Positions 320-43,421 are shown, counted from the stretch's first letter. The stretch: 64,000 nucleotides of DNA from Chryseolinea sp. (GCA_041737945.1 JBGSQQ010000030.1:139253-203252); one strand, 5' to 3'. Notes: a model not told the origin generated them from the sequence alone. Translations and numbers: made by a program.

Positions 320-334
320 TATCGAAAACTTATG

Positions 335-1957: not shown

Positions 1958-1988
1958 AATTTAAAAAACAGCCTCGGTAAATCGGGGG

Positions 1989-2018
1989 CAAAGGTAGGGT
2001 TCTGGGCTTAAAGTTCAA
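1989..2018 (-). promoter_or_regulatory. Bacteroidota primary-sigma promoter for pyrG-yidC
   Basis: Minus-strand TACCTTTG (-7 box TAnnTTTG, 1989-1996) with TTG 19 bp upstream (2016-2018). Confidence 0.6.
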
Positions 2019-2406
2019 GGGCTACCGTTTAAACTTGCTCGTTTTCGCAATGATCGAATTTCTATGCCCAAAACCCACCGATCCATGCCCTGAAAAGCTA
2101 CCCGGTACCAACAAGTCGGGTATTATGGAGCCGAATTACGAGGGTGGCACTTAATTTCTTACCATGATTTTGGTATTACGCTGGCGAAAAGGTCATTGTG
2201 GAGCTGGATTCGTGTCCGTTCATCTGCTGTATTGCCAATCTGGCAAATGAATCGTAGCTTTAACAGCAATACAGCATTTTTTGAGCTAATTAGTACGGTT
2301 ACTAATATTTTTTGCCACGGATACAGCTATGTCTATAGTGGCCAAAAGCTGGCAGTTTGTAATAACGCCAAATTCTGTATTCCATCATTTTTAAACGCTT
2401 GCGCGC

Positions 2407-5400: not shown

Positions 5401-8400
5401 ACGGCACCGGTAGTGGTAAACATTTCTCCAACTGACCTTTGTGAAAGTGTTGCCAACACCGGAATCGCTCAAGGGGTGGATCTTGCCGCCAGCTATGACA
5501 ATCTGGTAAACGGTGGTTTTGCCACGGTGGTAACGTGGTTCAGGAATCCGGCCCGGACCATTGCTGTTGCTAATGTTAATAATGAAGACGTTGCCAATGG
5601 AGAAATATTCTATGTCCGGGTCAGCACAACCGGCATACCGGTGTGTTCTTCTGACGGCGTTGTGAACTTCACGATCAATCCAAAACCATTTGTGGCCAAC
5701 TTAACACCTTCCCTGTGCGAGGATGTACCTGGCGGTGGCGTAGTTAATAATTTTGTTCTTACCGATTTCAGCGATGACGTTTCATTAAATGCGGCCAATC
5801 GTACCGTTAGCTGGTTTACAGATAGCAATGTGACGGTTCCTGTTCCTGATCCAACCGATGTAGATAATATCTCTGATGGTGCTACTTTTTACGCCCGTGT
5901 TGTTAATACTACAACGGGTTGTTTTAACGTGGCTACTGTAACCTACTTCATCAATGCCATTCCTGCGGATAACCCTATTGTCGGGCCAAATGCAGTTTGT
6001 CTTGATCCTACCGATGTCATATTTTTCAAGGTAGATCAGCTCAAGCCCAACCACACCTATCAATGGACAATTCCGCCCACGGTGACTGTTATCGGACCTA
6101 CCACTGATTTTTATGTTCTATTACAGTTTCCAAATGCAGTACCCGGGGGAATAACGATCGGCGTACAGGAGACTTCTCCGGAAGGTTGTCCCGGTAATCC
6201 TCAGCAGTTGAATATTTCCATTGAGGATAACCCTGGCGCATTGGCAATTACTGGTCCCGGGGAGGTCTGCGAGTTCGACACGGACGTTGTATTTACAGTC
6301 CCGCTTTTTGCAAATCTCACCTACGCCTGGAGTGTACCTCCCGGAGCATCAATCATTCTGGGCCAGGGAACAGAGGAGATTCGTGTTAATTTTGGCAACA
6401 TACCCGGTGATGTAATTGTCACTCCCTCTACGTCTGTTGGATGCGTTGGTCCGACGGCAACGCAGGCAGTAACCATTAACAGGCGACCCGTCATGGAGAC
6501 CCTGGATAAGGCTATCTGTAGCCAGGAAGACGCAGCAATAACCCTTGCGGTTGCAGGCGGAAGTGAACCAGCAACCGACTATAATTTTATTGCGAGAGTG
6601 CTGGACGGAGGTCTGTTCATTCTGAATGCACCAACTACCCCTCCGCAAAATCCTATCAGTGACAATGCTTTGTTTACCGATCGGTTTGAGAACAAGACAG
6701 TCACTCCGTTGAATGTGCGTTATACGGTTTCCGGGATAAGTGCGAAGGGCTGTGAAGGATCAACGGGTTTTATTACGGTAAGGGTGAATCCAGAGCCGCA
6801 GTTGAATCCTGCACTGGGAAGAAGCGTTTGTAGCGGCGCAGAGACAGAAATTGCATTGATTTCTGCGGAGAACACATTTCCTGTTGACAAATTTATAATT
6901 AACAGCATCATATTCCCTGGCGGTGTAACCGCAGTGGTACCAGGTGATATTCCCGTTGCGGATGGTATAACCTTGTACGATGATAATGTATTATATAGCA
7001 ACCGGTGGGATAATATAACAGGTGTAAATCAGGTCGTGTCTTATCAAATAATTCCCTATAGTACATTGATCGGTTGCGCAGGTTTGCCTTCTACGTTGAA
7101 TGTAACAGTTTACCCGCGTACCGATGTCCTTCCGGTTAACCCAATCATTTGTAATGGTGACTTACTGAACGTGACTTTCAGTTCTGCCAACAATCCAGAT
7201 GCAGATTTCCTGTGGCTTGTAAAAAGTTATGATTCATTTGTTACCATTAATAGCCCGGCTGCCGGAATGGGCAACATCGTTGATATGATCATTACCAATA
7301 CTTCTACTACGCAGGATGGTATCATAACATTCGAAGTAACGGGAAAAAATCAGCCTGGCGAAGAAGGCCCGGGAGGGTGTAGTAACCCCATTCAGACCTT
7401 TGTAGTAACGATTTTAAAATCGCCAGTAGCAAATGCGCAGAACCTTACGGCATGTTCGGACGTCCCGGGTGGAAGTACCTTTACCGCTGACCTTAAAGTC
7501 CTCGAGCCGAATATTTCTCCAAATGCCGGGACGCCAGACACCAGAATTACCTGGTACCTCACCGACCCAAGGTTAGGACCAGCAACAGTTATTCTTGATG
7601 CCAGTCTCAATGCTTTTGTCATGACAGACGCGGTTCCGGTTTTTGTTGAGGTTGAATATTTGCCAACCTCGTGTAAGAAAGTTATAGCGGTTCGATACAC
7701 GGTCAATCCGAATGTTTCTATAACAAACACAATCAGCAACTTCAATGGCTTCAATCTTAATTGTAACTCCGACAACTCGGGTGAAATCAGAATAGATGTT
7801 TTAACGGGGACGCCGGTGTATGCTTACCGTATTGATGGTGGTCCATTTATCAATGCAGGCGTCGTTACCTACAATTTCAGTTCATTGGCTGCCGGTTCAC
7901 ACACGATCGAAGTCCAGGATGCGAGAGGGTGTACCATATCACAAACAATAGATCTAATAGAACCTCCGGCACTTACGACTACATTAAACATCCAAAAGGA
8001 AATCACCTGCTTTCTTGGGAAGGATGGAGAAATCAGCACCACCGTGGGTGGTGGAACCGGGACGTATATTTCGTACTTGTTACTTCAAACCAACAATACG
8101 GATGCTAATAATGACGGCATTTTTGAAAACCTTGGTGCCGGTTCTTATAATGTGCGCGTAACGGATTCGAATAATTGCCGGATTGATTCGAACCCGGTTG
8201 ATTTAGCCCAACCTACTCAAGTGGAAATCAACAGCATGACGGTAGCAACGGATGCAAACGGATTCAACTTAAGTTGCCGGGATGCACTGGATGGCGAAAT
8301 TGAAGTAACGTTTTCCGGGGGTAATGTTCCTCCCGACTACACCCTTACATTAACCAAAGCATCTGATCCGCTAAATCCCGGCATTATTAATACAGCAGCG

Positions 8401-11913: not shown

Positions 11914-12181
11914 TAATCCTACTTTGTCAAGTTACGTTTTAACTGATTCTGAATTTGCTTTTGGTATCGAGTTATGTCATTAATAATTTTAGTTTCACGC
12001 AAAGGCGCCATGGCGCAAAAAAAAGCATTCAGTAAGCTTCAATTTTCGGAGACTCCCTGGGCGTTAATTTATTGAATATTGGACAGATTTGCGCCATGGC
12101 GCCATTGCGTGCTTCCTTCTCCTTCACTTTTCACAAAATCTCCTATCATGCCTCTGTATAAAACTTGACAAAGTAGGATTA
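11914..12181. mobile_element. MITE-like non-autonomous element, possibly IS4-family derived
   Basis: Perfect 20-bp terminal inverted repeats TAATCCTACTTTGTCAAGTT (11914-11933 and 12162-12181). Flanked by a 12-bp near-direct repeat ATCGTTATCCGT / ATAGTTATCCGT. No transposase ORF inside. Confidence 0.7.
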
Positions 12182-27413: not shown

Positions 27414-28988
27414 CATAGCCGTCAGGCTAATTTGTTAAGTAATTGATGATGAGGAGGAAAAAAGAGTTTAGTGCGTAGAATCCCGTTTGGGATTCAATGT
27501 CTTTCTTCCCATTTTTATATAGTTTTTATTTTTAGAAGGGGCGGGGTTTTTCAACCATTCCAATCCGCCCTTTCTTTCTCTTCAAAGATACAATCGATTA
27601 GCGGAGAAGTCGACAGAACCCAAGGATTTTACAACAAAAAATGCCTCTAGTTTGGCTCTGGCTCTTGTCAAATTTTTTGATCGTAAAACAATTTGGGAGT
27701 TAGCGCGGGCGACCAAATTCATTCAACGTAAATCCAAACTTTGTGCGGTGAAATTCCTTACCACATTGATGTTTGTACACCAACAAGGCAAAGATTTGAG
27801 TTTGCTCGACATCTGTGGTGACTTTTACACCCAACATGGTTTGCAGGTGAGAAAGCAATCTGTTCAGGAGCGGTTTAATGAACGCGCAGTTGCTTTTATG
27901 AAATCCATGTTGTGTAAACTGATGGAGAGCCAGCTTAACCTCACTGGCAAAGAAGAAAGGTTATCGTTTTTCAATCGGGTAAGGATTAAAGACTCCACAC
28001 GTTTTACATTACCTGCTGCTTATACCCAGTCCTATTCGGGAATGGGTGGTGCCCTTCTTAACAATGAATCAATGATTAGTATTCAATATGAATACGATCT
28101 GTTATCGGGTTCTACACTGGACTTGCGGTTAACCAATGGTACACGAAACGATCAACGTGATGCAAAAGAAAACACCCATGACATTGCTGAAAATGATTTG
28201 TTCATAAGAGATCTTGGTTACTCAACTACGAGCTATTTAAAACAGATTGTTGTTGGTAAAGCATATTTCTTAAATCGTTTGGGCCCACAACTGAATGTAT
28301 ATGAGGTAGGAAGGAAGGGCGAAGAGATAGACTTTTCAAAATGCAGGAAGAAAATAAAGAAACACAAGCTTCCCTATCTACATTACAATGTTGTTGTTGG
28401 CAAGGAGGCCCTGATACCTTGCCGATTAATTATCTATCCGGTAGACCAGGCTACCTATGAAAAGAGAGTACGTAAAACCACAAAACAAGCCAATGGCTAT
28501 GGATATCAAGTGTCCGATAACTTTAAATGCCGGGCTCAATTAAATCTTTATATCACCAACGTACCTGAAGAGAATTTGCCTTCCCATGTCGTCAAGAAAA
28601 CCTATGGCTTACGCTGGCAAATAGAATTGTTCTTTAAAGTATGGAAGACGCAAGCCAGGATAGATACGGTCAAGGGAATGAAAATCCACAGATTTGAATG
28701 CCAGTTGATCGCCAAATTATTATGGCTGGTGATCCAATGGAAAATATTTCGATTTGCCACAAAAAGTATAAGTGACACGCATCGTGGAGAATCCTGCAGT
28801 ATATGGAAATACTTCAAGCATGCATACAGGATAAATTCAATATTCAGAACTATATTAACAAAACCCCAAAAATTGATATGTTTGTTACTAGACGTAGCTA
28901 GGATAGCTCTTACCCAGTTTAAACTAGAAGAAAGGGATTGTAAGACTTCGCATCATAAAGCACTTCAAGTCTTAGCCTGACGGCTATG
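27414..28988 (+). mobile_element. IS4-family insertion sequence, 1575 bp (CAT-starting ends, IS231/ISH8-like)
   Basis: Perfect 17-bp inverted repeats CATAGCCGTCAGGCTAA (27414-27430 and 28972-28988) enclosing a DDE transposase. Confidence 0.92.
27652..28980 (+). CDS. IS4-family DDE transposase
   Basis: RIKDSTRF (D), FIRDLGY (D) and YGLRWQIELFFKVWK (YREK motif). The stop codon lies inside the right IR; the start codon is uncertain (TTG). Confidence 0.93.
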   Translation: MALALVKFFDRKTIWELARATKFIQRKSKLCAVKFLTTLMFVHQQGKDLSLLDICGDFYTQHGLQVRKQSVQERFNERAVAFMKSMLCKLMESQLNLTGKEERLSFFNRVRIKDSTRFTLPAAYTQSYSGMGGALLNNESMISIQYEYDLLSGSTLDLRLTNGTRNDQRDAKENTHDIAENDLFIRDLGYSTTSYLKQIVVGKAYFLNRLGPQLNVYEVGRKGEEIDFSKCRKKIKKHKLPYLHYNVVVGKEALIPCRLIIYPVDQATYEKRVRKTTKQANGYGYQVSDNFKCRAQLNLYITNVPEENLPSHVVKKTYGLRWQIELFFKVWKTQARIDTVKGMKIHRFECQLIAKLLWLVIQWKIFRFATKSISDTHRGESCSIWKYFKHAYRINSIFRTILTKPQKLICLLLDVARIALTQFKLEERDCKTSHHKALQVLA

Positions 28989-29205: not shown

Positions 29206-30225
29206 TCAATCTTCTATCTCGACCAGGTAAAGTGAATTCGAACCAATGAGGTAGACAATAGCTGTTTCATTGCGTATGAACGTTACATCCGTGAAGAGTA
29301 GTAGTTGAGGACTATGGATAAGATCTTTTTCTATTTTAGTAGTTATATCCAGAACCGATCCGAAAAACTGAAACTGGGGACAGTTACCATTCTGAGCAGG
29401 ATCTGTGCATCGCTGTTCCATAACCATTACCTTGTTGCCTGACTGGCTGACATAACGTATACCGAACCATTTCTGCCATCGGGCAATTCTCTGTTTTGTC
29501 GATTCATTGATTACTTCGAAACCATTGTCAGACAATGAGTACGAAAGAATACCTTCCGGACGCCAGCGCATAGTTCTAGGAGGAGCACCAAATGTGGGGG
29601 GGACAACCTCTGTAACTAATTCAACACTCTGCGTCTTAAGGTCGTAACTATAAAAATTGGCGTCTCGGATGAAAAGCAGCTTGCTGCCATCAGGTGAAAA
29701 TTGACAAGGCATGCCTTTAGTCAATGGCTTCTCTGTACCAGTGGCATATTCATACAGGTACATTGTATCTGAATCCCACGACAAATATTTTGCATAGGCA
29801 AAATGCTTTGAATTTATGGCCATGCGGCCTTGCTCACTTTTGATGCTATCAACAATGGCAGTTTTGAACGTCATGGTGGAAAGATTCAGCGCTGAGAGCA
29901 CACTAAAGTAGTCTACAAAATATAGGTTTGAATCCAAAACCATTCCACTCGAACCAATGCCTTGGGTGATTGAAAATTCCCTGCTATTTTTTGTCACCGG
30001 ATCAATCATTATTATGCCTGTTTCAGTGGCTAGAATGATTTCCGCAGTTTGCTCCGACCAGGTCATGAACCTGAACTCCTTAATATCTGAGCGAATCAGT
30101 GTTCCGTAATATGATGGAGGTGGAGGCTCAGGATTAGGCTGTTCGCTGCTGCATGAGTTAAGAAGTGCAATGCCAAGGATTGAGAGTAATAATAGACTGG
30201 ATGGTTGGGTGCTGAACTTCTTCAT
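29206..30225 (-). CDS. Hypothetical lipoprotein, probable beta-propeller (TolB/WD40-like)
   Basis: Lipobox LNSC; beta-rich, with a FSPDGSKLLF blade motif. Confidence 0.65.
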   Translation of the reverse strand: MKKFSTQPSSLLLLSILGIALLNSCSSEQPNPEPPPPSYYGTLIRSDIKEFRFMTWSEQTAEIILATETGIIMIDPVTKNSREFSITQGIGSSGMVLDSNLYFVDYFSVLSALNLSTMTFKTAIVDSIKSEQGRMAINSKHFAYAKYLSWDSDTMYLYEYATGTEKPLTKGMPCQFSPDGSKLLFIRDANFYSYDLKTQSVELVTEVVPPTFGAPPRTMRWRPEGILSYSLSDNGFEVINESTKQRIARWQKWFGIRYVSQSGNKVMVMEQRCTDPAQNGNCPQFQFFGSVLDITTKIEKDLIHSPQLLLFTDVTFIRNETAIVYLIGSNSLYLVEIED

Positions 30226-30318
30226 GGTTGCCTGTCAGCAAAAGTATTTCTTTTGTCAATAACAGATTAGTTCAATTTTTTCATTTATTGACAAAATTCC
30301 GTCATGGATCGCGAATCT

Positions 30319-30424
30319 GCGTGAGGGATAGTAGCGGAAAGCCCCCGATAGCCCTGGCGTAGGGTCGTGCGCATCGGGGACTTGTAGCGAATAGCCCGAC
30401 CCGAGCCTCGAGGGGCACGCCCAA
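30319..30424 (+). ncRNA. Flavo-1-like structured RNA motif
   Basis: GCGTGAGGGATAG.AGCGG...TAGCG..TAGCCCGACCC...GGGGCACGCCCAA, with pairings GCGTG/CACGC and CCCCGAT/ATCGGGG. It resembles the Bacteroidota Flavo-1 motif as recalled; not searched. Confidence 0.55.
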
Positions 30425-32232: not shown

Positions 32233-32842
32233 TATTGCAACTGAAGCCCTACCCAAATCAGTGTGTATCGTGGCGCGCCAAATGACATATGCTCATCCAT
32301 CTGAATTTTCCATGGCGCGCGGGCTCATGTTATTCTTTAGCGCCGGGTTTTACCCGGCGCTACCATATTTCGCCCCGATGGGGCTTTGCCTGCGCAGTAA
32401 TTGAAAGATGCTGAACCAGATGAGTTGATCATCTCGCCCAATCTTTGACAATTCCGGAAAAGATAGAATGATGAATTATAGTCGACTGATGAATAGCCCT
32501 CTCCTCCGGAGAGGGTTGGGTGAGGCCTCATTCGCATAAGCTCCGGCATATTACAGCTGAAACCCTACCCGAATCAGCGCGTATCGTTGCGCGCCAAATG
32601 ACATATGCTCATCCATCTGAATTTTCGATGGCGCGCGGGCTCATGTTATTCTTTAGCGCCGGGTTTTACCCGGCGCTACCATATTTCGCCCCGATGGGGC
32701 TTTGCCTGCGCAGTAATTGAAAGATGCTGAACCCGATGTGCTGATCATCTCGCCCAATCTTTGACAAATCCGGAAAAGACAGAATAATGAATTATAGTCG
32801 ACTGACGAATAGCCCTCTCCTCCGGAGAGGGTTGGGTGAGGC
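32233..32842 (+). repeat. Tandem duplication (316-bp period) of a 150-bp three-hairpin unit plus a 36-bp repeat
   Basis: Near-identical blocks start at 32233 and 32549; the 36-mers lie at 32491-32526 and 32807-32842. Confidence 0.92.
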
Positions 32843-32890
32843 TGGGCTGTTAGCCTTCAAAATCAGTGCGTATCGCTGCTGGATACTAAT

Positions 32891-32920
32891 AAAAAGTAAG
32901 GGCAGGTGTTTCACCTGCCC
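32891..32920 (-). terminator. Terminator of the T9SS peptidase gene
   Basis: Minus strand GGGCAGGTG-AAA-CACCTGCCC followed by TTACTTTTT. Confidence 0.8.
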
Positions 32921-32965
32921 AATGCTTAATGCTCAATGCCATTTGATCTAAACGGCCTAGCTGTT

Positions 32966-35900
32966 CTACTTCTTAATAAACTTCACAAGCCGCTGAGACC
33001 CATCGCGACTTACGACCTGAAGGACGTACACACCAGATTTGAGATCAACGGTACTAATACGTAACGACTGTGAATAAGTTCCTCTATAGACACTTTGTCC
33101 CTGTATGGTTTGAATATACAACATAGCATCTTTTGCGATCGTATCATCCATTTTAACGAACAGCTCATTTTCTACCGGCACTGGATAGATGGTTAAGCCT
33201 GACGTCTGTACTACAGAACCATCCTCTTCTGAAGTGGTTGCCAACATTCGGGCTGCGCTATTGTTGTTATCGCCAATGGTAAAGTGTATGGTGAGCGGCC
33301 GACCAACGTCTCCACCAGCTTCTGTGTCGGAATACGGGATGGCCTGAAGGGTGTACGCGCCAGCCTGGGGCATCCAGGGTTCGAAATAGGTTCCATAGTT
33401 ATCACCGGTGAGTGTATACGGGGCCGCATTTTGCAGACTGGTAAATTTGGTGTTTATGGAAAAAGTTACGCTACCTACCTGTCCCGTTGTATTGGCAACA
33501 ATCGTCTGACCGCTTGACCTCAGATCATCCGCATGGAGGATATCACCATCATGTAAACGACGCAGGACTTTCCCCGACGTATTGACGATATCATAACTGA
33601 CTACTGCACGCACACTTTCTTTAACGGTTAGATGTATCGTAAGGGACTTACCAGCGCCTCCACCGGCATCCGATGCTGAATACGGCGTAGCCGTAAGGGT
33701 GTAAGAGCCGGCCTCGGGTATCCATGGCTCGAAATAGGTTCCATAGTTGTCACCGGTGAGTGTATACGGGGACTCATTTTGCATTTTGAAAAAAGTACCA
33801 TTTACAAAAAACTCCACACTCCCTGGCTGTCCCGTTGTATTAGCAACAATGGTCTGGCCTGTCGCTTTCAAATCGTCCAATTCAAGGACATCACCTTCAT
33901 TTAAACGACGAAGAACCGTTCCGGAGGTATTGACGATATCATAACTGAGAACGGAAGTTTCGGGCATAACGGTAAAGCGTATGGTGAGCGACCCACCAGC
34001 GTCTCCACCGCCATCTGATTCGGAGTACGGCGTAGCGTTGATTGTGTAGGAGCCGGCGTCGGGTATCCATGGCTCGAAGTATGTACCATAGTTGTCACCC
34101 GTGAGTGTATACGGAGACTCATTTTGCATTTTGAAAAAAGTATCATTTAAGAAAAACTCCACGCTGCCGGGCTGTCCCGTTGTATTCGCAACAATGGTCT
34201 GTCCTGTGGCTTTCAGATCATCCAACTGGAGAACATCCCCTTCATTCAAATGACGAAGAACCGTTCCGGAAGTATTGACGATATCATAACTGAGAACAGA
34301 AGTTTCTGGCATAACAGTAATGTGTAAGGTTAGCGGCCCACCAGCGTCTCCACTGCCATCTGATTTGGAATACGGTGTGGCGCTGATTGTATAGGATCCG
34401 GCATCGGGTATCCATGGCTCGAAATAGGTTCCATTATTATCCCCGGTGAGTGTATACGGGGACTCATTTTGTATTTTAAAAAAAGTAGTATTTACAAAAA
34501 ACTCCACGCTCCCTGGCTGCCCCGTTGTATTCGCAACAATGGTCTGGCCTGTAGCCTTCATATCTTCCAACTGGAGAACATCGCCTTCATTTAAACGACG
34601 CAAAACCTGGCCGGAAGTATTTACGAGGTCATAACTGACCACGGCTAAAGAATTTGTTCCGGTTTCCTGAAGCTCAGCAATCCAGTAGTCATAGTCGCCC
34701 TTACTATTCTCACTTTTATCTCCGGAGGCATCAGAACGAGAATATCCTGCCAGCAGATAACCACCAGTGGGGGTGAGAATGGTACTTGTTAGAAAATCTA
34801 AAGAACTTCCTCCGATTGTCTTATCCCATACTTTGTTGCCCTGGTCATCAATTTTTAAAGCCCAGTAGTCTTCAACACCTTTGCTAGCCTCACTCTTATC
34901 TCCGGAGGTACCCGAGTTTGAATAACCCGCCAACAGATAGCCTCCGTCAGGGGCAGATACGACGCTGGCACAAACGTCAGAAGCATTTCCCCCATAAGTT
35001 TTATCCCATACTTTATTGCCGGTAGCATCTATTTTTACGACCCAAAAATCATTTTCGCCTTTCCTATTTTCGCTTTTATCTCCGGAAGCATCGGAAAAAG
35101 AATATCCTGCGAGCAGATAACCGCCGTCAGCGGTGAGAAGGGTGGCGGAAAGTTGATCATCACTAATTCCTCCCAGGGTTTTATCCCATACTTTGTTTCC
35201 CTGGTTGTCAAGTTTCACTACCCAGTAGTCCGTTCCACCTTTGTTATTCTCACTCTTATCACCTGAAATACCGGATCTGGAATATCCGCCCACCAGGCAG
35301 CCCCCGTCAGCGGAAGGCGATACACTTCGAAGTTCATCTTCTCTATTCCCGCCGATAGTTCTATCCCAAATTTTATTGCCTTGTCCATCAATTCTCACGA
35401 CCCAGTAGTCTATAATACCTTTGTTGTTTTCGCTCTTATCTCCGGAGGCACTGGATTCTGAGTAACCCGCCAACAGATAACCTCCACCGGGCATGGCGAT
35501 TCCACTAAAAAGTAAATCACCTCTATTCCCGCCATAGGTTTTGTCCCAAAGCTTATTACCCTGGTCGTCAATTTTTACTACCCAATAGTCAAAGAAACCT
35601 TTTCTATTTTCACTCTTATCGCCAGAGGCATTAGATTGCGAATAGCCTGCCAGCAGATAACCTCCACCAGGAGCGTGGATTACACTTCGAAGTTCGTCCG
35701 AATCAGCCCCTCCAAAGGTCTTGTCCCACAGCCTGTTTTTCTGAGCATCAACTTTTACAATCCAATAGTCGGATGCACCTCGGGTGTCCTCACTTTTATC
35801 TCCCGAAGCGTTCGAATTCGAGTGTCCTGCCAGCAAATAACCTCCATCGGCAGTCGCGATAACACTTCTAAGTTGGTCAGTACCCGCCCCTCCAAGGGTT

Positions 35901-37849
35901 TTGTTAGACAGTGTACCACTTATGCTTACCTGAAAGGATACAGTACGTGCGACGCCAACTTCGGAAGCATAAAAAGGTGTCGCGGTTAACGTGTATTCGC
36001 CAGGCAACAACGTTCTACCAATAAAATCGCCGTCGGAATCCCCAAACAGCCCATAGGGAGGTTCACTGTCCACCTGATGATGGGCTATCGGACCTTCGAG
36101 GCTGAACTCTACCCGCTCTATTATTCCAGACGATGTATTGGCACGAACACTGAATGTTTTTCCTTCCCATGCTGGCGGGTGGATAACCAGACCATCCGGT
36201 AATTCAGCAACGGCTTCATCTTTGTCGGCATCAATCAGTGTAAAACTTTCAACCGTAATTTTCTTTTCGCCAGGAATGTTGACACTTACGGCAGTAGAAA
36301 TAGTCTGAGCACCTGTTGGGTCCGTCAACTTAAGTCTGATCAGATAATTGCCCGGACTTGCATATTGATGCTGTACTGTCTTGTTCGTACTGGGTTCTGT
36401 ATCGAACTCGCCGTCGTTGTCTACATCCCAGGATGCCAGTAGTGATGACTGATTTTGATCCACGTCATATGACAGCGAAGCGTCCAACTCAATCGGCTGG
36501 TTCATTGCCGGAAATGCAGGATTAATTCTGATAAAGGGAACGGGCGCCTGGTTGTTTCCAACCGGCACATTAAACTGCACATCCACGCCGGTTTTGTTGC
36601 CCTGCATGTCCAGCACAAAGACCGTATACCGGTTGATTTCGCCTTGGGTGAAGTATGGAACGGCAAACGTGGCGTTCAATGCCGTAGTGCCTTTCAATAA
36701 CATTTCAGCGGCCATGTTTCCTCCGTGTGTCAGATAAGCGAAACTAAACCCATCAGGATCCGAAGCTTGAAACGAAATGCGAACAAGTCCCTGTTGGGGA
36801 GTAACAGATGGTTGAACAACAGGGGAAACAGAAGGGCCATCCGTTACCATTTTGTCGCTGTTAAAATAGTGACTCACGTTGAGATACAGCGCTGAGGCGT
36901 ATTCCAACCGGGTGAAGTCCTGCGGATACGTCTCCGGGAAAAGACTTCCCCGTGTTCCGCGTAATCCGTTGCCCATCAAATTGCCGTGGAAATTATCATC
37001 GTTCCGGTAGTCGTGTGACAGGCCGAAGCCATGGCCTGTCTCATGCCATAAGGCGCCTAGCCAGGACGATGCTACTGAACTAAAGGTCGTTCCTTCAAAC
37101 CAGGCAAATGTCACATCCTGTTTCATAGGATAAGGCCCAAGTTCGGGGAGCACTTTCCCATCGTACTGAGTTTCATCCGTGATTATTTCCGGGCGCAGGA
37201 AAGGCAAGGCATTACTGCTGATCATTGACAAACCAGGACTGTTACCTGAGCCTTCACCGGAACCCAACGCCACTCCTCCTGTCAAACTTCCATCGGGCAG
37301 CATCAAATGAGCTTCAGGAATTAGCACCCACACTTCGCCAGGGGCCCACAGTGAAATACCGGCATTACTAGCTGCCTGCTGGGCTCTTCCCCAAAGATCG
37401 CCACGCAAGTACTCATCGGTTTCGCTGACTTGTACCACGTGAATCAACGGGGTTACACCATCAGCTTCCGTTTCATACTTGTAGGTCTTCGGCCCAAAGC
37501 CATTCTGCTCCATTTGTTCTTTAAAGAATTGTTGTCCCGCTTTAATGGCATATTGCAAATTGGCCACACCATTAGGTTGGGGTGTGCGGTTTGACGGAAT
37601 CACATAGGCCACCCGTAGCATGGCTCCTGCGCTAGCTGCTCTCCTCACAAATGATGTCTGCTGAGGCGGTCGGACTTGACACGAGTCGGACGATGACAAG
37701 AAAACGGATGACTTCTGAGAGAAGGAAGCAAATACCACATGGGTTAAAAGAATTCCTGTCAGCAGTATTTTCTTTAGTGGAGCGAGTCGACATGCATGGC
37801 CAAAAGCAATTTCAAAAAGGCTCATTCGTGTGTGGATGGTAGGATTCAT
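32966..37849 (-). CDS. Multidomain T9SS type-A cargo: metzincin-like Zn peptidase, PKD, beta-propeller, Ig-like repeats and CTD
   Basis: HETGHGFGLSH (HExxHxxGxxH); PKD-like SWDVDNDGEFD...YASPGNY; eight ~51-aa WDKT.GG..D repeats; four ~114-aa repeats; C-terminal IYPVPVEN...LKSGVYVLQV...VKFIKK. Confidence 0.88.
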   Translation of the reverse strand: MNPTIHTRMSLFEIAFGHACRLAPLKKILLTGILLTHVVFASFSQKSSVFLSSSDSCQVRPPQQTSFVRRAASAGAMLRVAYVIPSNRTPQPNGVANLQYAIKAGQQFFKEQMEQNGFGPKTYKYETEADGVTPLIHVVQVSETDEYLRGDLWGRAQQAASNAGISLWAPGEVWVLIPEAHLMLPDGSLTGGVALGSGEGSGNSPGLSMISSNALPFLRPEIITDETQYDGKVLPELGPYPMKQDVTFAWFEGTTFSSVASSWLGALWHETGHGFGLSHDYRNDDNFHGNLMGNGLRGTRGSLFPETYPQDFTRLEYASALYLNVSHYFNSDKMVTDGPSVSPVVQPSVTPQQGLVRISFQASDPDGFSFAYLTHGGNMAAEMLLKGTTALNATFAVPYFTQGEINRYTVFVLDMQGNKTGVDVQFNVPVGNNQAPVPFIRINPAFPAMNQPIELDASLSYDVDQNQSSLLASWDVDNDGEFDTEPSTNKTVQHQYASPGNYLIRLKLTDPTGAQTISTAVSVNIPGEKKITVESFTLIDADKDEAVAELPDGLVIHPPAWEGKTFSVRANTSSGIIERVEFSLEGPIAHHQVDSEPPYGLFGDSDGDFIGRTLLPGEYTLTATPFYASEVGVARTVSFQVSISGTLSNKTLGGAGTDQLRSVIATADGGYLLAGHSNSNASGDKSEDTRGASDYWIVKVDAQKNRLWDKTFGGADSDELRSVIHAPGGGYLLAGYSQSNASGDKSENRKGFFDYWVVKIDDQGNKLWDKTYGGNRGDLLFSGIAMPGGGYLLAGYSESSASGDKSENNKGIIDYWVVRIDGQGNKIWDRTIGGNREDELRSVSPSADGGCLVGGYSRSGISGDKSENNKGGTDYWVVKLDNQGNKVWDKTLGGISDDQLSATLLTADGGYLLAGYSFSDASGDKSENRKGENDFWVVKIDATGNKVWDKTYGGNASDVCASVVSAPDGGYLLAGYSNSGTSGDKSEASKGVEDYWALKIDDQGNKVWDKTIGGSSLDFLTSTILTPTGGYLLAGYSRSDASGDKSENSKGDYDYWIAELQETGTNSLAVVSYDLVNTSGQVLRRLNEGDVLQLEDMKATGQTIVANTTGQPGSVEFFVNTTFFKIQNESPYTLTGDNNGTYFEPWIPDAGSYTISATPYSKSDGSGDAGGPLTLHITVMPETSVLSYDIVNTSGTVLRHLNEGDVLQLDDLKATGQTIVANTTGQPGSVEFFLNDTFFKMQNESPYTLTGDNYGTYFEPWIPDAGSYTINATPYSESDGGGDAGGSLTIRFTVMPETSVLSYDIVNTSGTVLRRLNEGDVLELDDLKATGQTIVANTTGQPGSVEFFVNGTFFKMQNESPYTLTGDNYGTYFEPWIPEAGSYTLTATPYSASDAGGGAGKSLTIHLTVKESVRAVVSYDIVNTSGKVLRRLHDGDILHADDLRSSGQTIVANTTGQVGSVTFSINTKFTSLQNAAPYTLTGDNYGTYFEPWMPQAGAYTLQAIPYSDTEAGGDVGRPLTIHFTIGDNNNSAARMLATTSEEDGSVVQTSGLTIYPVPVENELFVKMDDTIAKDAMLYIQTIQGQSVYRGTYSQSLRISTVDLKSGVYVLQVVSRDGSQRLVKFIKK

Positions 37850-38159
37850 ATAGACAGTTTGTTATTGTTGCCGGTAATTGATAGCATAGGTGATTTCCAG
37901 CAAGGCCTCCATTGGGGGTCTGATGTTCTTTTAGCGCGAATATTTACTTTAAAACTGCGTTGATCAGGTCATGATATCAATGAGGGTTCTCATTCTGTAG
38001 TGATGAAGTTTATCACGCGTATGTTGGCCGGAAGGTGAGAAACGTCATAGTTTGTGTGCTATATCCGTATTACATTGATTTATCCACGAAGACCTCGATT
38101 TTCTTATGATATCACTGGCGTCTGAAATGACGAGTGTGCTAATAAGAGATGTAGACGAT

Positions 38160-38296
38160 TTTGGCGTGCCCTCGTACAACCTTTCGCAGCCATTCATCAT
38201 GCTTGCTCGGGCCGGGCTTTCGGCACTCGCCAATCAACCCACGTGCTCCCGATAGCTATCGGGAGGGGCTCAGACAAATGCCTCAATCCCTCACGC
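38160..38296 (-). ncRNA. Second Flavo-1-like structured RNA motif
   Basis: Minus strand GCGTGAGGGATTGAGGC...GCCGAAAGCCCGGCCC...GGGCACGCCAAA. Its variable stem is the 20-bp palindrome CTCCCGATAGCTATCGGGAG (38246-38265). Confidence 0.5.
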
Positions 38297-38333
38297 GATT
38301 TGTTGGCAGGTGTTGCCAGTGCATGATTTTTGA

Positions 38334-38373
38334 GCCTGCCTGCCGGAGGTAGGGCCTGCCTGCCGGAGGTAGG
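38334..38373 (+). repeat. Tandem 20-bp GCCTGCCTGCCGGAGGTAGG repeat (CCTGCC..GGCAGG-type palindromic repeat)
   Basis: Exact copies at 38334-38353 and 38354-38373; related motifs at 38767, 39425 and in the IS4 flanks. Confidence 0.85.
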
Positions 38374-38399
38374 TGGGAGTGTGTTGCTATCTTGTGCTG

Positions 38400-39785
38400 A
38401 CGATGATTGTAGTTTCTCTTGGCCTACGTCTCCTTCTTACTTGCATCTAATTTTCCGCCGTCGAACTTGTAGGTCACACAGCCGTAGGTATATTGCAAAT
38501 GAATCCCCACCCGAATCAGTGTGCCATGTTACGCGCCAAACACCCAGAAAACACCTATTGACTTTTTCCTGGCGCGTGGGCCCATGCTTTTTGCTGGCGC
38601 CGGGTTGAAACCCGGCGCTACAATAGTGCCGCCCCGCTGGGGCTTGTCTTAGCTGGTGGACGTTCTTTTCAAAATCGTCATTGCGAGGTTGCTTACTTGC
38701 GCAGCAAGTATATGCAACCGTGGCAATCCCCGTTCTACGTAGCGCGCACGTTGTAGTTCGGGGTTGGCCTGCCGGCAGGCTTTACGCTTACGCACAAGAC
38801 CAACGCTCCAGTTCGCAATGACGTGGACTTCCAACAGACCCGGCGCTACTTACCACTAACTTCTACCTTCAAACTTGTAGACGAGATAGCTTTGTTATTT
38901 TGCAAATGAACCCCCACCCGAATCAGTGTGCAAGGTTACGCGCCAAACATCCAACGAACATCAATTGACTTTTTCCTGGCGCGTGGGCTCGTGCAATTTG
39001 ATAGCGCCGGGTTGAAACCCGGCGCTACAATAATGTCGCCCCGCCGGGGCTGTCTGAACTGGTGGATGCTCTTTTTAAAATCGTCATTGCGAGGTTGCTT
39101 ACTTGCGCAGCAAGTATTCCGATAACTCCCGATAGCCAGTATGTTTGAAAATGCATAGGTCTTGCGAACTTTAATTAACCACAATTAAAGGCGTAAACCA
39201 CAAAAACCTATGCAAGAGAAAATTAACGAAAAGACATTTGAGGGTCAATCAATTTATGTTGGAATTGATGTTCACAAAAAGGACTGGAAAGTGACAATCA
39301 TGACAGCCGAGCTATCATACAAGACATTTTCATCTGTTCCCAAGGCAGAAAAGTTAGCTATCGGGACGGGAGCAACCGTGGCAATCCCCGTACTACATAG
39401 TGCGCACGTTGTAGTCCGGGGTTGGCCTGCCGGCAGGGTAGGGTGGTGAGTGGGTTGCTCACTTAGGATTTTTGCCGTCTGATCTGGCTTACGTGGCTAC
39501 TTCCTTACTTACTGTCTAATTCTATCTTCGAACTTTTAAGGCACACAGCTTTGGCATATTACAAATGAACCCCACCCGAATCAGTGTGCAAGGTTACGCG
39601 CCAAACATCCATGGAACATCTATTGACTTTTTCCTGGCGCGTGTGCCCATGCTATTTGTTGACGCCGGGTTGAAACCCGGCGCTACAATAGTGTCGCCCC
39701 GCTGGGGCTTTGCCTGACCTGGCGCAGGTTTCAAACGAGATCAAATGACGAATAGCCCTCTCCTCCGGAGAGGGTTGGGTGAGGC
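38400..39785 (+). repeat. Degenerate tandem triplication of a mosaic repeat unit
   Basis: Three-hairpin units at 38491-38643, 38898-39050 and 39557-39708, each preceded by a CTTCTAA/CTTCGAA-type leader. The first two are followed by GTCATTGCGAGG elements, the third by a 36-mer (39750-39785). Confidence 0.85.
39137..39358 (+). mobile_element. Truncated IS110-family element (left end plus about 49 codons of transposase)
   Basis: The ORF from 39210 reads MQEKINEKTFEGQSIYVGIDVHKKDWKVTIM, the IS110 DEDD N-terminal GIDVHK motif. It is flanked by CTCCCGA-TAGC and TAGC-TATCGGGA. Confidence 0.8.
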
Positions 39786-39825
39786 CTATGTCGCAACCTA
39801 ATTGCGCCAGGAGCCAACACGTTCA

Positions 39826-41007
39826 TCAAAGCTTTAACCGGAACTTCATTTTTTCAAGCAGCACGGGCAACCCAATGCCCATCACCACCGCCCACACAAC
39901 GGATCCGAGGATGACCAGCCCCGGCATCGGTAAATGTTTGTAGAAAAGAAAAGGCAGACTGAATTGCCAGATGATATAGTAGAACATGTCCGGCACGAGG
40001 TAAATGGTAAGTGAATTGGCACCTGCCGGCTGTAGAAAACGACTCCAGTTTACTTTTTTCAAAATATCAATGATCCAGAATAGCAAAGCAAATAGTAGCA
40101 TGGTGATGCCGTTGCAAATGAGCGCCCAGGTGTGTGTTGCCTGAATCTTGGAGATAATGAACCACGGCCGAAAAATGAAACCGGCAGCAATGCTCACCAT
40201 ACCCAACCCGGCAATAACCAAGGCAGTCCGTATAGCATTTTCGGTGGCATATTTTCTCAGGATAATGGTAATGAGCATTCCCGAAAGCACAATGAAAGTA
40301 GCGTTGCCATTGATAATGATGCCAAAGATGGGTCGTACCGGACTAAGAAAATCGAGCAGATGCAATTTTGAAAGCATATTCAGGATGAGGAAGAATAAAA
40401 CGCATACCAGGGTTTTCGAAATGTTGTCGCGGAACCACATGTATACAAAGGCTGCGACCCCGAAACCCCAACCGATTGTCCCAAGAATGCCCCAGGAATT
40501 GAATCGGAAAATTTGATCTTCGGCAGACCTGAAAATATACACCATGGGTAGTATCATCAGAACACCCAGCAGCTGAAGGCCGTAAACGATGTATTTATTC
40601 GTTGACTTGTCGTACGTATACCAAATCAGAAATACGCCGGTATACATGATCATCGACCACAAGCTCTTGGATATTCCGGTGTATGCTGCATCGACACTTC
40701 TCGAGTTGGACATCAGCACGCCGATGATAAGAAGACTTACCATGCGCACAAGAATATGTTTGATCAGCTCTTGTTGATTTTCTCCTTTGGATATCCGGTT
40801 CCCCACGGAATAGGGAATCGACATTCCCACCATAAACATAAATCCGGGGAATACCCAATCAGCCAGACCCATGCCATCGACGTCACCGTCCATATGACCC
40901 AGCCAGGCCGGTACACCGGGCATGTATAGATCATTGACGGATAACATAAGAACCAGATTAAATCCTCTCAGTATGTCGATAGATAGAATGCGGTTACTCT
41001 TTTGCAT
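39826..41007 (-). CDS. DUF5009 / heparan-alpha-glucosaminide N-acetyltransferase-like membrane protein
   Basis: RILSIDILRG..MLSVND, ADWVFPGFMFMVGMSIP and multiple TM segments. Probable start MQKSN at 41007. Confidence 0.85.
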   Translation of the reverse strand: MQKSNRILSIDILRGFNLVLMLSVNDLYMPGVPAWLGHMDGDVDGMGLADWVFPGFMFMVGMSIPYSVGNRISKGENQQELIKHILVRMVSLLIIGVLMSNSRSVDAAYTGISKSLWSMIMYTGVFLIWYTYDKSTNKYIVYGLQLLGVLMILPMVYIFRSAEDQIFRFNSWGILGTIGWGFGVAAFVYMWFRDNISKTLVCVLFFLILNMLSKLHLLDFLSPVRPIFGIIINGNATFIVLSGMLITIILRKYATENAIRTALVIAGLGMVSIAAGFIFRPWFIISKIQATHTWALICNGITMLLFALLFWIIDILKKVNWSRFLQPAGANSLTIYLVPDMFYYIIWQFSLPFLFYKHLPMPGLVILGSVVWAVVMGIGLPVLLEKMKFRLKL

Positions 41008-41157
41008 ATGAAAATGAAGTGACGAATAGCCATCTTCCACTCAGAGGGTTGGGTGAGGCTTAGACCTCTAATTTACTAAACTGGTCTACGTCTTGTCCTT
41101 TGCAGGCGGGTTTATTTTATACTTTCAAGATTGTGACCCTTTCACATAGCGCCGGCA

Positions 41158-41443
41158 TCTTACAGGCGAAACCTACCCCGAATCAGTCTGCCTCGTTGCG
41201 CGCCAGGACGCATACAGATCAAATTGATTTTCCGATGGCGCGCGGACTTGTTTCGTTATTAAGCGCCGGGTTTTACCCGGCGCTACCATATGTCGCCCCG
41301 ACGGGGCTTTGATTGAGTAATTTTGAATTTAGAGACTCTGAACAAGATGGCACTAACCATCTGGATACACGGTAATAAATCCGGAAGAATAAAAAAATAA
41401 AAATGACAAATAGCCCTCTCCTCCGGAGAGGGTTGGGTGAGGC
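41158..41443 (+). repeat. Three-hairpin unit (41158-41307) plus 36-bp repeat (41408-41443); degenerate 36-mer at 41024-41059
   Basis: Same motifs as the 32233 and 39557 copies. The 36-mer abuts the stop codon of the RraA-like gene. Confidence 0.88.
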
Positions 41444-42373
41444 CTAATGATCTTGTTTGGCTATATACGCTTCAATATCCTTTGACGTAATAGCTGTCTT
41501 CTTCGGATATTTTGCGAACCATGCCCGGAACTCATCTTTCATTTTGTCATTCCAATCACCATGCACATCTCCGGATGGATATTTTCCTAACTGCAGTATG
41601 TAGCGCTCAAATTCATCCCGCAAGCCGGTCATTTCTGAAGCGGTGACAAGGCCGTCAACCAGGTAAGCCGGAATAAACATGACGCCATAGTCGTTGGCAA
41701 ACACCACATCGCCCGGGAAAACTGTTACCATGCCAACGCGGATGGGCGCATTAATTGTAGTAGGCGTCATATCCTTAATAGCGGAAGGGTCGTTGCCTTT
41801 TATCCACGCATTAAAACCTTTCGTATCCCGTAACTCTTGCATGTCCCGTATGGAGCCATAAAAAACAACGCCCTTTCCGGTCTTTCCATAAATCGCATTT
41901 CCCAGACTTGAACCAATCAGCGTTCCATCCTTTACTTTTCCAAAACCATCCGCTACATAGATGTCTCCCTTGGTGAGTATATCAATGGGCCAGATGTTAA
42001 TTCCTCCCCGTTGATTGCGTCCTTCCGTTTTGCCTTGAGCTCTCACGTAGGTATCGAGGTCAGGTCTCGTGGGCATGAACTGGACCGTCACGGCGCGGCC
42101 TACCATGGTTTCGCCCGCTTTTAAAATGATCCAGTTATTCTCAAACTGATTATGAAAACCATTCTTTCCCAAATAGCTCCATATCTGTTCGAGTGTACAA
42201 TTCTGCAACCGCTCCAACGTATTGTCCGACACTTTTGGCCGACCATCCGCATAGCGTTCACCCTCCCACTTGGGCGTTAGTGCTTTAACATATTCTGGTG
42301 GAGCCCCAATATGCTGAGCCTGGGCACTCAGGCCCAATAAAACGACGAGGATAATCAACAATGTATTTTTCAT
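41444..42373 (-). CDS. RraA/HMG-aldolase (demethylmenaquinone methyltransferase-like) family protein with signal peptide
   Basis: MVGRAVTVQF, GDIYVADG...G.LIGSSLG, GVVFYGSIRD and VFPGDVVFANDYGVMFIP; N-terminal SPI (LSAQAQ). Confidence 0.8.
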   Translation of the reverse strand: MKNTLLIILVVLLGLSAQAQHIGAPPEYVKALTPKWEGERYADGRPKVSDNTLERLQNCTLEQIWSYLGKNGFHNQFENNWIILKAGETMVGRAVTVQFMPTRPDLDTYVRAQGKTEGRNQRGGINIWPIDILTKGDIYVADGFGKVKDGTLIGSSLGNAIYGKTGKGVVFYGSIRDMQELRDTKGFNAWIKGNDPSAIKDMTPTTINAPIRVGMVTVFPGDVVFANDYGVMFIPAYLVDGLVTASEMTGLRDEFERYILQLGKYPSGDVHGDWNDKMKDEFRAWFAKYPKKTAITSKDIEAYIAKQDH

Positions 42374-42644
42374 AGTGAATTAAGGTTTGTAAAGTCTGAT
42401 ATGCTGACCCTAAACCATATGATTACATATGGTTAGGGATTGGGCAATGGATTCAATTAAACCCAAGCCGCAAACGTTTTAAAGATAGTAAAAGTAATGA
42501 GGATACCTAACGCCGTCTATGTACAAACCTGCCGCCGTTGTGGCAAGTTGACTCGTCATTTAAATTCCAAATTAACAGGATGCTTTGCTTCGTCTCTTAG
42601 AAAAATGTGAAGACGTCGGACATTTCTACCATCGGCCTATGAAT

Positions 42645-42680
42645 GAATAGCCCTCTCCTCCGGAGAGGATTGGGTGAGGC
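42645..42680 (+). repeat. 36-bp repeat copy
   Basis: GAATAGCCCTCTCCTCCGGAGAGGATTGGGTGAGGC, one substitution from the consensus. Confidence 0.9.
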
Positions 42681-42750
42681 AAAGAACGCCAACACGTGAA
42701 CCAGTTCACTACGTATACGGATGTCGGGAAATCAGAATGGCAATTTTTCT

Positions 42751-43155
42751 TTAAAACGTGATTCCGGGAGTACCAGCCCCACTTACTGCTATTACAATGG
42801 CGATGGGAACAAGAATGGCAATCGTTGTTTTCATCGGATCAATTTTCCGCTCTGATATTTTCACAACATTCTTTGCGATATTTTCAATATCGTCCGTAAA
42901 GGTAATTTTGTTTTTCTTGTTGTAACCATTTGGATAAAGGTAACCTACTACACAATCATCATCAACAGCAGTCACGTAAATACGCTGAATTTGCCCCATC
43001 GACAATTCAAATTCATACCGCTTTCCGGTTTCTAATGCTGCCACGAAATCCCGCGTAATTGGCTTATTCCTGGTAATGTCTTTGGTGGAATAGCACGAAG
43101 TGAAAAGTGGCGAAAGGAGTATCAGTATAAATACCAGCCTGATATTTGATTTCAT
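42751..43155 (-). CDS. Hypothetical lipoprotein with C-terminal TM anchor
   Basis: MKSNIRLVFILILLSPLFTSC lipobox; hydrophobic C-terminus. Probable start at 43155. Confidence 0.7.
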   Translation of the reverse strand: MKSNIRLVFILILLSPLFTSCYSTKDITRNKPITRDFVAALETGKRYEFELSMGQIQRIYVTAVDDDCVVGYLYPNGYNKKNKITFTDDIENIAKNVVKISERKIDPMKTTIAILVPIAIVIAVSGAGTPGITF

Positions 43156-43253
43156 GGTGTTTGATTTTAACCGACATAAAAATACAGTCATTGTCATTAT
43201 TCGGCTGACACAAATCATTCATCCATTATCTCAATTCAGTCATGGTTTTTGCC

Positions 43254-43421
43254 GCCTTTGCGAACCGAAGCGGAGCTATGCGGGTACGTGTGAAGCAATC
43301 CCCGCACTACAACGTGCGAACCCTATAGTACGGGGATTGCCACGGTTGCTCCCGGTACCATCGGGATACTTGCCAGGCAAGTAAGCAACCTCGCAAAGAC
43401 GGACAACTCGCCTTTGCGAAC
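43254..43421 (-). repeat. GTC(A/T)TTGCGAGG-type palindromic element, inverted copy
   Basis: The reverse complement matches 38676-38770 (GCGAGGTTGCTTACTTGC..GCAAGTA..GCAACCGTGGCAATCCCCG..GCACGTTGTAGT). Confidence 0.85.

Follow-up and report, generated by a model that had tools for sequence, protein, structure and literature searches.

Oriented palindromic repeats behind neighbouring genes: a probable REP-type cluster in an uncultured Chitinophagaceae chromosome

Does a row of genes, each followed by the same repeat in the same orientation, mark a system of gene capture? The question is raised by a stretch of DNA deposited as Chryseolinea sp. (GCA_041737945.1, JBGSQQ010000030.1:139253-203252; all 64,000 nt of it are referred to as the window, and positions are counted from its first nucleotide), in which four minus-strand genes are each followed by a 36-bp repeat (the 36-mer) and, in three cases, by a unit of ~150 bp. 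A preliminary description, made from the sequence alone, had offered two explanations: a repeat-mediated gene capture array with non-attC sites, or an accumulation of repetitive extragenic palindromes (REPs) in 3' untranslated regions. The second holds up in our analysis. The repeats are probably a palindromic pile-up of the REP or bacterial interspersed mosaic element (BIME) type, made of three or more families and located in the 3' intergenic DNA of a fast-evolving stretch of an uncultured Chitinophagaceae chromosome. This is indicated by their short palindromes, their GTAG and CGTC tags, their BIME-like mosaic arrangement, and the position of the 36-mer behind the stop codons of core genes in an orientation that depends on the gene. 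The repeats do not act as site-specific recombination sites for gene cassettes. An orderly gene-repeat layout is by itself no proof of gene capture, because REP-type repeats that are oriented by the neighbouring gene give the same picture; a tempting false lead is thereby removed.

Three repeat families in one stretch

The four genes are as first called. Pfam confirms the gene for a multidomain protein secreted by the type IX secretion system (T9SS; 32966-37849, with PKD, Big_7 and Por_Secre_tail domains and a Metallopep match slightly under the cut-off), the gene for a DUF5009/heparan-alpha-glucosaminide N-acetyltransferase-like membrane protein (39826-41007) and the gene for a secreted RraA-like protein (41444-42373). 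Translated N-termini confirm the signal peptide of the RraA-like protein (MKNTLLIILVVLLGLSAQAQ) and the lipobox (LFTSC) of the small lipoprotein encoded at 42751-43155. All four lie on the minus strand, and all three repeat families described here fall within 32233-43405 of the window.

The 36-mer (35 or 36 nt) reads AATAGCCCTCTCCTCCGGAGAGGGTTGGGTGAGGC; it is exact at 32492, 32808, 39751 and 41409 and does not occur outside the cluster in the 64 kb, and shuffled sequences gave an expectation of 0 matches. On the gene strand, a head of 11 single-stranded nt (GCCTCACCCAA) is followed by a perfect stem of 8 bp that closes a 3-nt loop, and then by a tail rich in T/A. All six copies in the window are intergenic, lie on the plus strand and point their heads toward the ends of minus-strand genes. 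Two exact copies follow the T9SS gene, one at 32492-32526 (with its head, the GGGTGAGGC end, toward the gene) and one at 32808-32842, 123 nt past the stop codon. A third exact copy (39751-39785) lies 40 nt past the DUF5009 stop codon, and a fourth (41409-41443) touches the stop codon of the RraA-like gene, with a gap of 0 (6 nt in a close relative, relative A below). The copy behind the lipoprotein gene (42646-42680) has one mismatch and begins 70 nt past the stop codon, and the remaining copy (41025-41059) is degenerate and carries a stop-codon-like TAA at its head. Read from the sequence, the gaps of 123, 40, 0 and 70 nt are exactly those first reported.

The ~150-bp unit consists of three hairpins and also occurs six times on the plus strand, with cores starting at 32233, 32549, 38489, 38896, 39554 and 41148. 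Copies at 32233-32388, 32549-32704 and 41148-41311 make up subfamily A; an extended copy at 38395-38673 (core 38489-38644) and copies at 38847-39079 (core 38896-39051) and 39485-39730 (core 39554-39709) make up subfamily B. A unit does follow a 36-mer behind the T9SS, DUF5009 and RraA-like genes, as the preliminary description had it. The two composites of unit, spacer and 36-mer at the left-hand end, of which the unit at 32233 opens the first, form a 316-bp tandem duplication with 95% identity, so the twelve copies of 36-mer and unit represent fewer than twelve independent events.

The stems of the unit are well maintained, with 99% of cells paired across ten copies from the window and its relatives. 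Both sides have changed in four pairs: one of these is a subfamily switch in stem 1, and hairpin 2 of contig L165 (relative B, below) accounts for the other three. In that contig, the hairpin 2 stem at 5360-5385 reads GCGCCCCGAC...GTCGGGGCGC, with three compensatory pairs, and the adjoining CTAC/GTAG tag is unchanged. The composites also have folding energies lower than those of shuffled sequences. Hairpin 2 has a stem of 10 bp and hairpin 3 one of 5 bp, and on the minus strand hairpin 2 reads 5'-GTAG-CGCCGGGT-loop-ACCCGGCG; it is a classical GTAG-tagged REP. A metagenome scan with this GTAG hairpin returned 32 loci that share only hairpins 2 and 3 and not the whole unit, which indicates that the unit was put together from smaller modules.

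REPs are divided into GTAG- and CGTC-tagged superfamilies, of which the former is larger, and in the latter the CGTC tag is followed by a stem that starts with AT (Di Nocera et al. 2013, PMC3733652). A third family in the cluster, famC, which had been missed previously, starts with CGTCATTGCGAGG and has precisely this arrangement of CGTC tag and AT-starting stem (CGTC-ATTGCGAGG). The copy at 38676-38779 is a nested palindrome (CGTC-ATTGCGAGG...GGCAAT-CC, plus further hairpins) whose tag class follows PMC3733652. A second element is split into halves at 39082-39123 and 39367-39437 by the remnant of an IS110-family insertion sequence (IS) at 39124-39366; all of these are on the plus strand (copies beginning at 38676, 39082 and 39367). 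The remnant comprises the upstream end of the element and the first 52 codons of its transposase (39210-39365), and it lies within the central palindrome of famC: in contig L120 of relative A, famC is an uninterrupted nested palindrome (5425-5543), and in the window its centre (CCCGATAGC / GCTATCGGG) is parted. The 52-aa fragment alone had no match in Pfam or NCBIfam and none by tblastn against plasmids; it was identified only through its full-length relatives, which carry DEDD_Tnp_IS110 and Transposase_20 domains. REPs are known targets of IS elements, including those of the IS110 family (PMC1525189). As a side observation, a 20-mer, GCCTGCCTGCCGGAGGTAGG, forms a perfect tandem pair at 38334-38373 (plus strand) inside a gene-free stretch of 2 kb, and related GGCCTGCCGGCAGGC hairpins occur after famC copies. 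We also considered the unit as the non-coding end (bridge or seek RNA) of an IS110 element and rejected this: in the single full-length relative that was compared, similarity to the window is confined to the coding N-terminus, and since its non-coding DNA is unlike the unit, there is no sign that the unit derives from that IS.

The remaining famC copy, at 43252-43405 on the minus strand, is opposite in orientation to the other three and lies at the left edge of the variable segment that contains the lipoprotein gene. The claim that all twelve repeat copies point the same way is therefore correct for the 36-mer and the unit, but the repeats of the region as a whole do not share one direction.

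The 36-mer in other genomes

We scanned one genome per species for the exact core GCCCTCTCC-NNN-GGAGAGGGTTGGGTGAGG and found it at no fewer than 119 loci in other Bacteroidota and Ignavibacteriota genomes, with several loci per Mucilaginibacter genome; the window's own genome is not among the matches. The matches listed are mostly from Mucilaginibacter, with others from Cyclobacteriaceae, Cytophagales, Chitinophagaceae, Flavobacteriaceae and Ignavibacteriota. We set the 123 listed copies to one orientation and called open reading frames (ORFs) of at least 100 aa. Among them, an ORF running toward the GGTGAGG(C) end had its stop codon 0-10 nt from the head in 44 cases and 11-200 nt from it in 18, and a stop codon lay within 12 nt on the tail side in only three. 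The spacers among the listed matches were co-directional in 71 cases, convergent in 15 and divergent in seven, and 46 of 122 listed copies had an inverted partner hairpin on the tail side. This shows that the 36-mer carries a built-in polarity, with its head toward the stop codon of the neighbouring gene, and four co-oriented genes will accordingly yield co-oriented repeats.

The genes that end at the head, again among the matches listed, are ordinary and often essential. They include secA (in three to four genomes) and the genes for the ribonucleotide reductase small chain, serine hydroxymethyltransferase (glyA), citrate synthase, anthranilate synthase, aspartate-semialdehyde dehydrogenase and ABC transporters. 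In four Mucilaginibacter species, a 33-nt form of the repeat occupies the same place, 0-4 nt behind secA (L001 ~4470, L017 ~3515, L018 ~6135 and L110 ~585). Between these species it varies at a single loop base, while ~15-20% of positions are changed within the 240 terminal nt of secA and no similarity is left in the DNA past the repeat. Judged from these alignments, the constancy behind secA points to retention by selection or to repeated homogenization, with the proviso that a scan for an exact core favours intact copies.

In the organism itself, the copy number can be estimated from the source metagenomes. Window DNA is present at ~5x depth in hot-spring and biofilm metagenome runs, and the summed word depth of the 36-mer core is 52-116 vs ~5 for single-copy DNA, or ~10-20 single-copy equivalents; there the core joins five or six other sequence contexts at the least. 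The family therefore has tens of copies in this organism and not hundreds. The preliminary description had set against gene capture a picture of hundreds of randomly oriented copies beside core genes. Copies are indeed found beside core genes in many genomes, but their orientation is not random, and this organism has only tens of them.

The position of the 36-mer also bears on what it might do. With an 11-nt head and a gap of 0-5 nt, the hairpin starts ~12-17 nt after the stop codon. Adjacency to stop codons, together with constancy behind secA, suggests that the 36-mer is a transcribed 3'-end element: it would be copied into the 3' end of the upstream gene's mRNA, where it may serve as a terminator or as an mRNA-stabilizing hairpin, and the hairpin may be near enough to the stop codon to affect the terminating ribosome. 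When the window's six 36-mers were put through a simple terminator scan, only two passed, at 41432-41414 and 42669-42651 on the minus strand; their tails, CTATTTGTCA and CTATTCATTC, are weak T runs. E. coli REPs within 15 nt of a stop codon are reported by Liang, Rudd and Deutscher (2015) to stall ribosomes and lower expression. The 36-mer resembles them in placing a stable hairpin ~12-17 nt after the stop codon; it differs in its unrelated sequence (for which blastn found nothing in E. coli genomes), in that only one of the six window copies abuts a stop, and in being known from sequence alone. A suggested resemblance to E. coli boxC was dropped after blastn against 5,426 E. coli genomes gave zero matches.

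One may go further and ask whether the 36-mer (head GCCTCACCCAA followed by CCCTCTCC-NNN-GGAGAGGG) is an undescribed, Bacteroidota-wide 3'-end element whose spread or retention behind stop codons is tied to translation termination. We regard this as a tentative proposal that is rather doubtful as it stands. Under it, the hairpin might meet the terminating ribosome, the element might be a protein-binding site, or its G-rich template strand might perhaps stop RNA polymerase; mobility is another possibility, the element then targeting the nucleotides that come first behind a stop codon. If true, the 36-mer would also seed a hotspot of gene turnover in this Chitinophagaceae lineage. An element of 30 nt that stands 0-10 nt behind stop codons in many Bacteroidota genera, and behind secA in four species, appears to be undescribed; a literature search with the repeat sequence found no paper.

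Gene turnover and competing explanations

The region was compared among three lineages with ~82-92% nucleotide identity over aligned blocks; relative A is represented by contigs L120 and L164, from one JGI sample, and relative B by L165/L166. Relative A retains the RraA-36-mer-unit succession. In place of the lipoprotein gene with its 36-mer it has 225 bp of unrelated DNA. An 80-bp stretch of the window, which includes the degenerate 36-mer, has as its counterpart in relative A a segment of 2.2 kb; this carries, on the opposite strand, a choice-of-anchor I gene that has a terminator of its own. Its DUF5009 gene (L120) has no 36-mer behind it, and its T9SS gene is present and preceded by one composite vs two in the window. 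Relative A also has two additional small genes after a conserved gene of 551 aa and lacks the window gene at 29206-30225 (L164). Upstream of the 551-aa gene, L164 carries HD-domain, AEP-like primase and AAA_13 genes (154-4584) that look like a defence or mobile module, and a partial copy of the unit at 4684-4802; the window has a SusC/SusD pair and an IS4 element in that place. In relative B, the 551-aa gene and DUF5009 are direct neighbours in convergent orientation. Neither the T9SS gene nor either composite is present there, although a short piece of the T9SS 3' flank has been left, and behind DUF5009 (L165) the 36-mer is reduced to its head, TTGGGTCGAGGCC. In one of the metagenome runs, X3, a single low-depth contig joins 32175 directly to 32551, suggesting a population variant with one composite, as in relative A.

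Repeats have thus been gained or lost at the same sites, with one composite or two before the T9SS gene and a 36-mer behind DUF5009 that is present, reduced to its head, or absent. The variable gene segments include upstream DNA, hundreds of bp long, and their ends fall at unrelated places; of the four breakpoints mapped, just one lies at a repeat edge, and synteny also breaks left of 30314, where the window has no repeats. In these alignments, gene-sized turnover is real and dense and proceeds by deletion and replacement in a fluid region and not by site-specific exchange. Precise gain or loss of gene-plus-repeat units, which the preliminary description had proposed to look for in close relatives, is not what they display: the ends are irregular and do not fall at equivalent repeat positions. 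In more distant relatives, with 80-84% protein identity, the neighbouring genes differ and repeats are missing within 10 kb. Since synteny is not kept at this divergence, the comparison bears little on cassettes.

It is against this background that an integron-like or other site-specific cassette array has to be weighed, in which each gene with its downstream 36-mer would be a mobile cassette, the 36-mer a non-attC site, and the recombinase encoded elsewhere. attC sites are imperfect palindromes of 57-141 bp in which an R'' box (RYYYAAC) pairs with an R' box (GTTRRRY). Integron arrays have an IntI-type tyrosine recombinase with attI alongside, and CALINs are clusters of attC sites without an integrase. 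The window shares with both the gene-site order, a site after each ORF in one fixed orientation, and neighbours that vary among relatives: the lipoprotein gene plus 36-mer, the T9SS gene plus composites, and the choice-of-anchor I gene are each present or absent among the three. Each 36-mer moreover contains, on the gene strand, ACCCAAC, which fits the R'' consensus shortly after the stop codon, and the copies are strongly clustered and amount to only ~10-20 equivalents in the source metagenomes. However, no 36-mer has a GTTRRRY partner 50-140 nt downstream, and all of the intergenic DNA contains just two such heptamers, both unrelated (42511 and 38955); without a partner R' box, an attC-type fold is impossible, and the 36-mer is in any case a perfect 8-bp hairpin. 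Neither an integrase nor a tyrosine recombinase nor a Y1 transposase came up when the window's non-overlapping ORFs of at least 150 aa, together with smaller ones from the repeat stretch, were scanned with Pfam; all that these scans brought up was the gene of an IS4 DDE transposase. The variable segments are not bounded by 36-mers; they are irregular at their ends and include several hundred bp of upstream sequence, so that genes come with their own upstream regions, as well as unrelated filler DNA. Where the gene is missing, the 36-mer is missing too, both in L120 (lipoprotein site) and in L165 (T9SS site), and the T9SS 3'-flank remnant in L165 indicates plain deletion. The additional gene of relative A is encoded on the opposite strand, has a terminator of its own and lacks a 36-mer, and the T9SS gene likewise has its own terminator-like hairpin ahead of the repeats (32920-32900, minus strand; GGGCAGGTG AAA CACCTGCCC followed by TTACTTTTTA; terminator scan), a canonical one that sits between its stop codon and the repeats. 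In other genomes the 36-mer is a dispersed singleton behind core genes such as secA. The integron-like reading is already largely refuted, and we consider it highly improbable; the suggested gene capture array with non-attC sites fails for lack of R''/R' pairing, of a recombinase in the window, of regular segment ends and of sites left at gene-less positions. Nor did a search for circular junctions in low-depth Logan contigs revive it: the joints there reflect cross-mapping between repeat copies, not excision. The earlier statement that the window holds no recombinase or REP-associated tyrosine transposase (RAYT) is right for tyrosine recombinases and Y1 transposases, but an IS4 transposase gene and the IS110 fragment are present.

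Three further explanations concern the composites, the units and the assembly. The ~300-bp composite could be a miniature inverted-repeat transposable element moved whole by a DDE or other transposase, with single 36-mers as broken ends. In its full length, with the spacer, the composite is found at three places in the window and again in L120 and L164, with identities of 75-85%, L139 and L164 have ~55 nt more in common past the head, the 5' end of the unit (CCCTACCCGAA) is, by eye, an imperfect inverted match to the head of the 36-mer (TTGGGTGAGG), and an IS4 transposase gene lies 3 kb away. Yet the inverted match extends over just ~9/11 nt, no target-site duplication is visible at the junctions compared, and L165 lacks only the 36-mer hairpin. 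The 36-mer is also far more widespread than the unit and stands alone in other genera, and the unit hairpins occur alone as well, so that the composite looks assembled from modules and not like their source; we judge this explanation unlikely. The units might instead be small RNA genes of the Acido-Lenti-1 type, whose plus-strand transcripts would run antisense to the minus-strand genes at their 3' ends and regulate those genes. At relaxed thresholds, hairpins 2 and 3 match Rfam RF01687 on the plus strand at 32341-32385 and 32657-32701 (33 bits each, the latter in the unit at 32549), 39005-39051 (35.1 bits) and 41264-41308 (36.7 bits, the best), all below the gathering score of 37, and there is no minus-strand match. 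Like Acido-Lenti-1, this part of the unit has two hairpins, a conserved unpaired linker (GCUAnnnUAUGnCG), a conserved 3' CU, and stems that are altered yet pair, with compensatory changes; sigma-70-like promoter matches also occur on the plus strand in the spacers at 32445 and 32761. That promoter scan did no better than shuffles, however, and Bacteroidota promoters are of another type; stem pairing in palindromes is preserved in DNA as well, and the copies are multiple, mosaic and variously truncated, in the manner of repeats and not of genes. Unlike Acido-Lenti-1, the unit is found in Bacteroidota and not in Acidobacteria or Lentisphaerae, and the matching hairpins plainly belong to a multi-copy repeat that reads, on the reverse strand, as a GTAG-tagged REP. 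We find a small RNA decidedly unlikely; conversely, the Acido-Lenti-1 RNA motif, for which no function is known (Weinberg et al. 2010, PMC2864571), may itself be a GTAG-tagged REP module. That the metagenome contig was wrongly joined across repeats is scarcely credible: the source metagenome has ~5x depth and Logan contigs break at every repeat, with cross-joints between copies, but independent assemblies of other samples repeat the main adjacencies (RraA-36-mer-unit and DUF5009-famC-units in L120, unit-36-mer-T9SS in L164, unit-DUF5009 in L165), and the sole uncertainty is whether there are two tandem composites or one.

We consider the REP/BIME explanation the probable one. The cluster shares with REPs and BIMEs short palindromes of 20-40 bp that are extragenic and mostly behind coding regions, with co-directional or convergent spacers; inverted dimers; unit, spacer, 36-mer and famC combined in varying orders; the GTAG tag of hairpin 2 and the CGTC tag of famC; service as IS targets; and gain and loss between close relatives. 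Several points weigh against it. The stem of the 36-mer has no adjoining GTAG or CGTC tag (CGTC lies 5 nt from the stem in this lineage and is missing from Mucilaginibacter copies), and unlike known REPs it has a conserved 11-nt unpaired head aimed at the stop codon, which in the window abuts the stop in only one copy of six. Copy number is low, in the tens, and the six 36-mers in an 11-kb stretch are a true local concentration, unusually clustered for REPs. This clustering can be explained in part by the 316-bp tandem duplication, by reuse of composites with shared spacers and perhaps by local insertion; the rest is unexplained. Pfam scans found no Y1 or RAYT gene in the 64-kb window, so none stands beside the repeats there, and the searches for RAYTs elsewhere, by Pfam scans of 98 ORFs and a tblastn, brought up no mobilizing enzyme for the 36-mer; the sole Y1 gene near a 36-mer (L049) has different hairpins at its flanks. 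The requirement for an exact core favours intact copies and, together with the restriction to the matches listed, biases both conservation and taxon counts, and transcription of the 36-mer and its effects on termination and the ribosome are matters that we infer.

For the GTAG hairpin, a candidate enzyme does exist. Two related rhizosphere metagenome contigs carry an IS200-like Y1 gene (152 aa) with an inverted doublet of GTAG-CGCCGGGT hairpins directly 3' to it, a candidate REP-plus-transposase unit (doublet and gene at 5202-5347 and 5366-5824 in L135, and at 3166-3299 and 3307-3765 in L137). The protein matches PF01797 (E = 1.8e-26) and lies above the cut-off for NF033573. Here too there is a counterweight: it scores only 27 bits against NF047646 (REP_Tyr_transpos; cut-off 80), making it an ordinary IS200 transposase and not the NCBIfam REP-associated type, and the link between Y1 and the GTAG hairpin amounts to one independent locus, in other organisms.

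On the REP/BIME reading, the cluster has grown by the 316-bp tandem duplication and also by the copying of larger composites, as shared spacers at different loci show. New GTAG hairpins would probably be inserted by an IS200-like Y1 (HUH) transposase that acts in trans on single-stranded hairpins. The palindromes, in turn, would favour deletions, duplications and IS insertion and so make the stretch more variable. The repeats attract IS elements, as the IS110 remnant inside a palindrome illustrates, and they mark, and probably promote, gene-sized deletions and replacements. Repeat-dense spacers that coincide with gene-sized gains and losses between ~90%-identical genomes offer a natural case in which to ask whether REP clusters drive local turnover.

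The surrounding chromosome

The remainder of the window is ordinary chromosome, with genes for CTP synthase, an SprB-like adhesin with PorP/SprF, a SusC/SusD pair, two-component regulators and one IS4 transposase. The RraA-like protein is ~79-83% identical to proteins named Ginsengibacter and Segetibacter. Within the T9SS gene, four tandem coding repeats of ~345 nt (33274-34611) and six of 180 nt (34682-35863), 62-85% identical, resemble domain repeats. A blastn search of the composite against a plasmid collection gave zero matches, and Rfam at gathering thresholds gave none in the window.

Some minor features lie outside the cluster. The IS4-family transposase gene is intact (27652-28980, plus strand; NF033592, 199 bits) and stands ~3 kb to the left of the repeats; the gene at 29206-30225, which relative A lacks, flanks it. 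A long, near-perfect hairpin at 11993-12114 (minus strand), between the PorP/SprF gene and a poly(A) polymerase-like gene, has no relation to the repeats studied here, and Rfam returned only a spurious microRNA match for it. Directly upstream of the conserved 551-aa gene, 30314-30405 (plus strand) is a near-match to the Flavo-1 RNA motif of Rfam (37.9 bits vs a gathering score of 42), and similarity to L164, L165 and L166 starts at 30314-30315, the start of that match.

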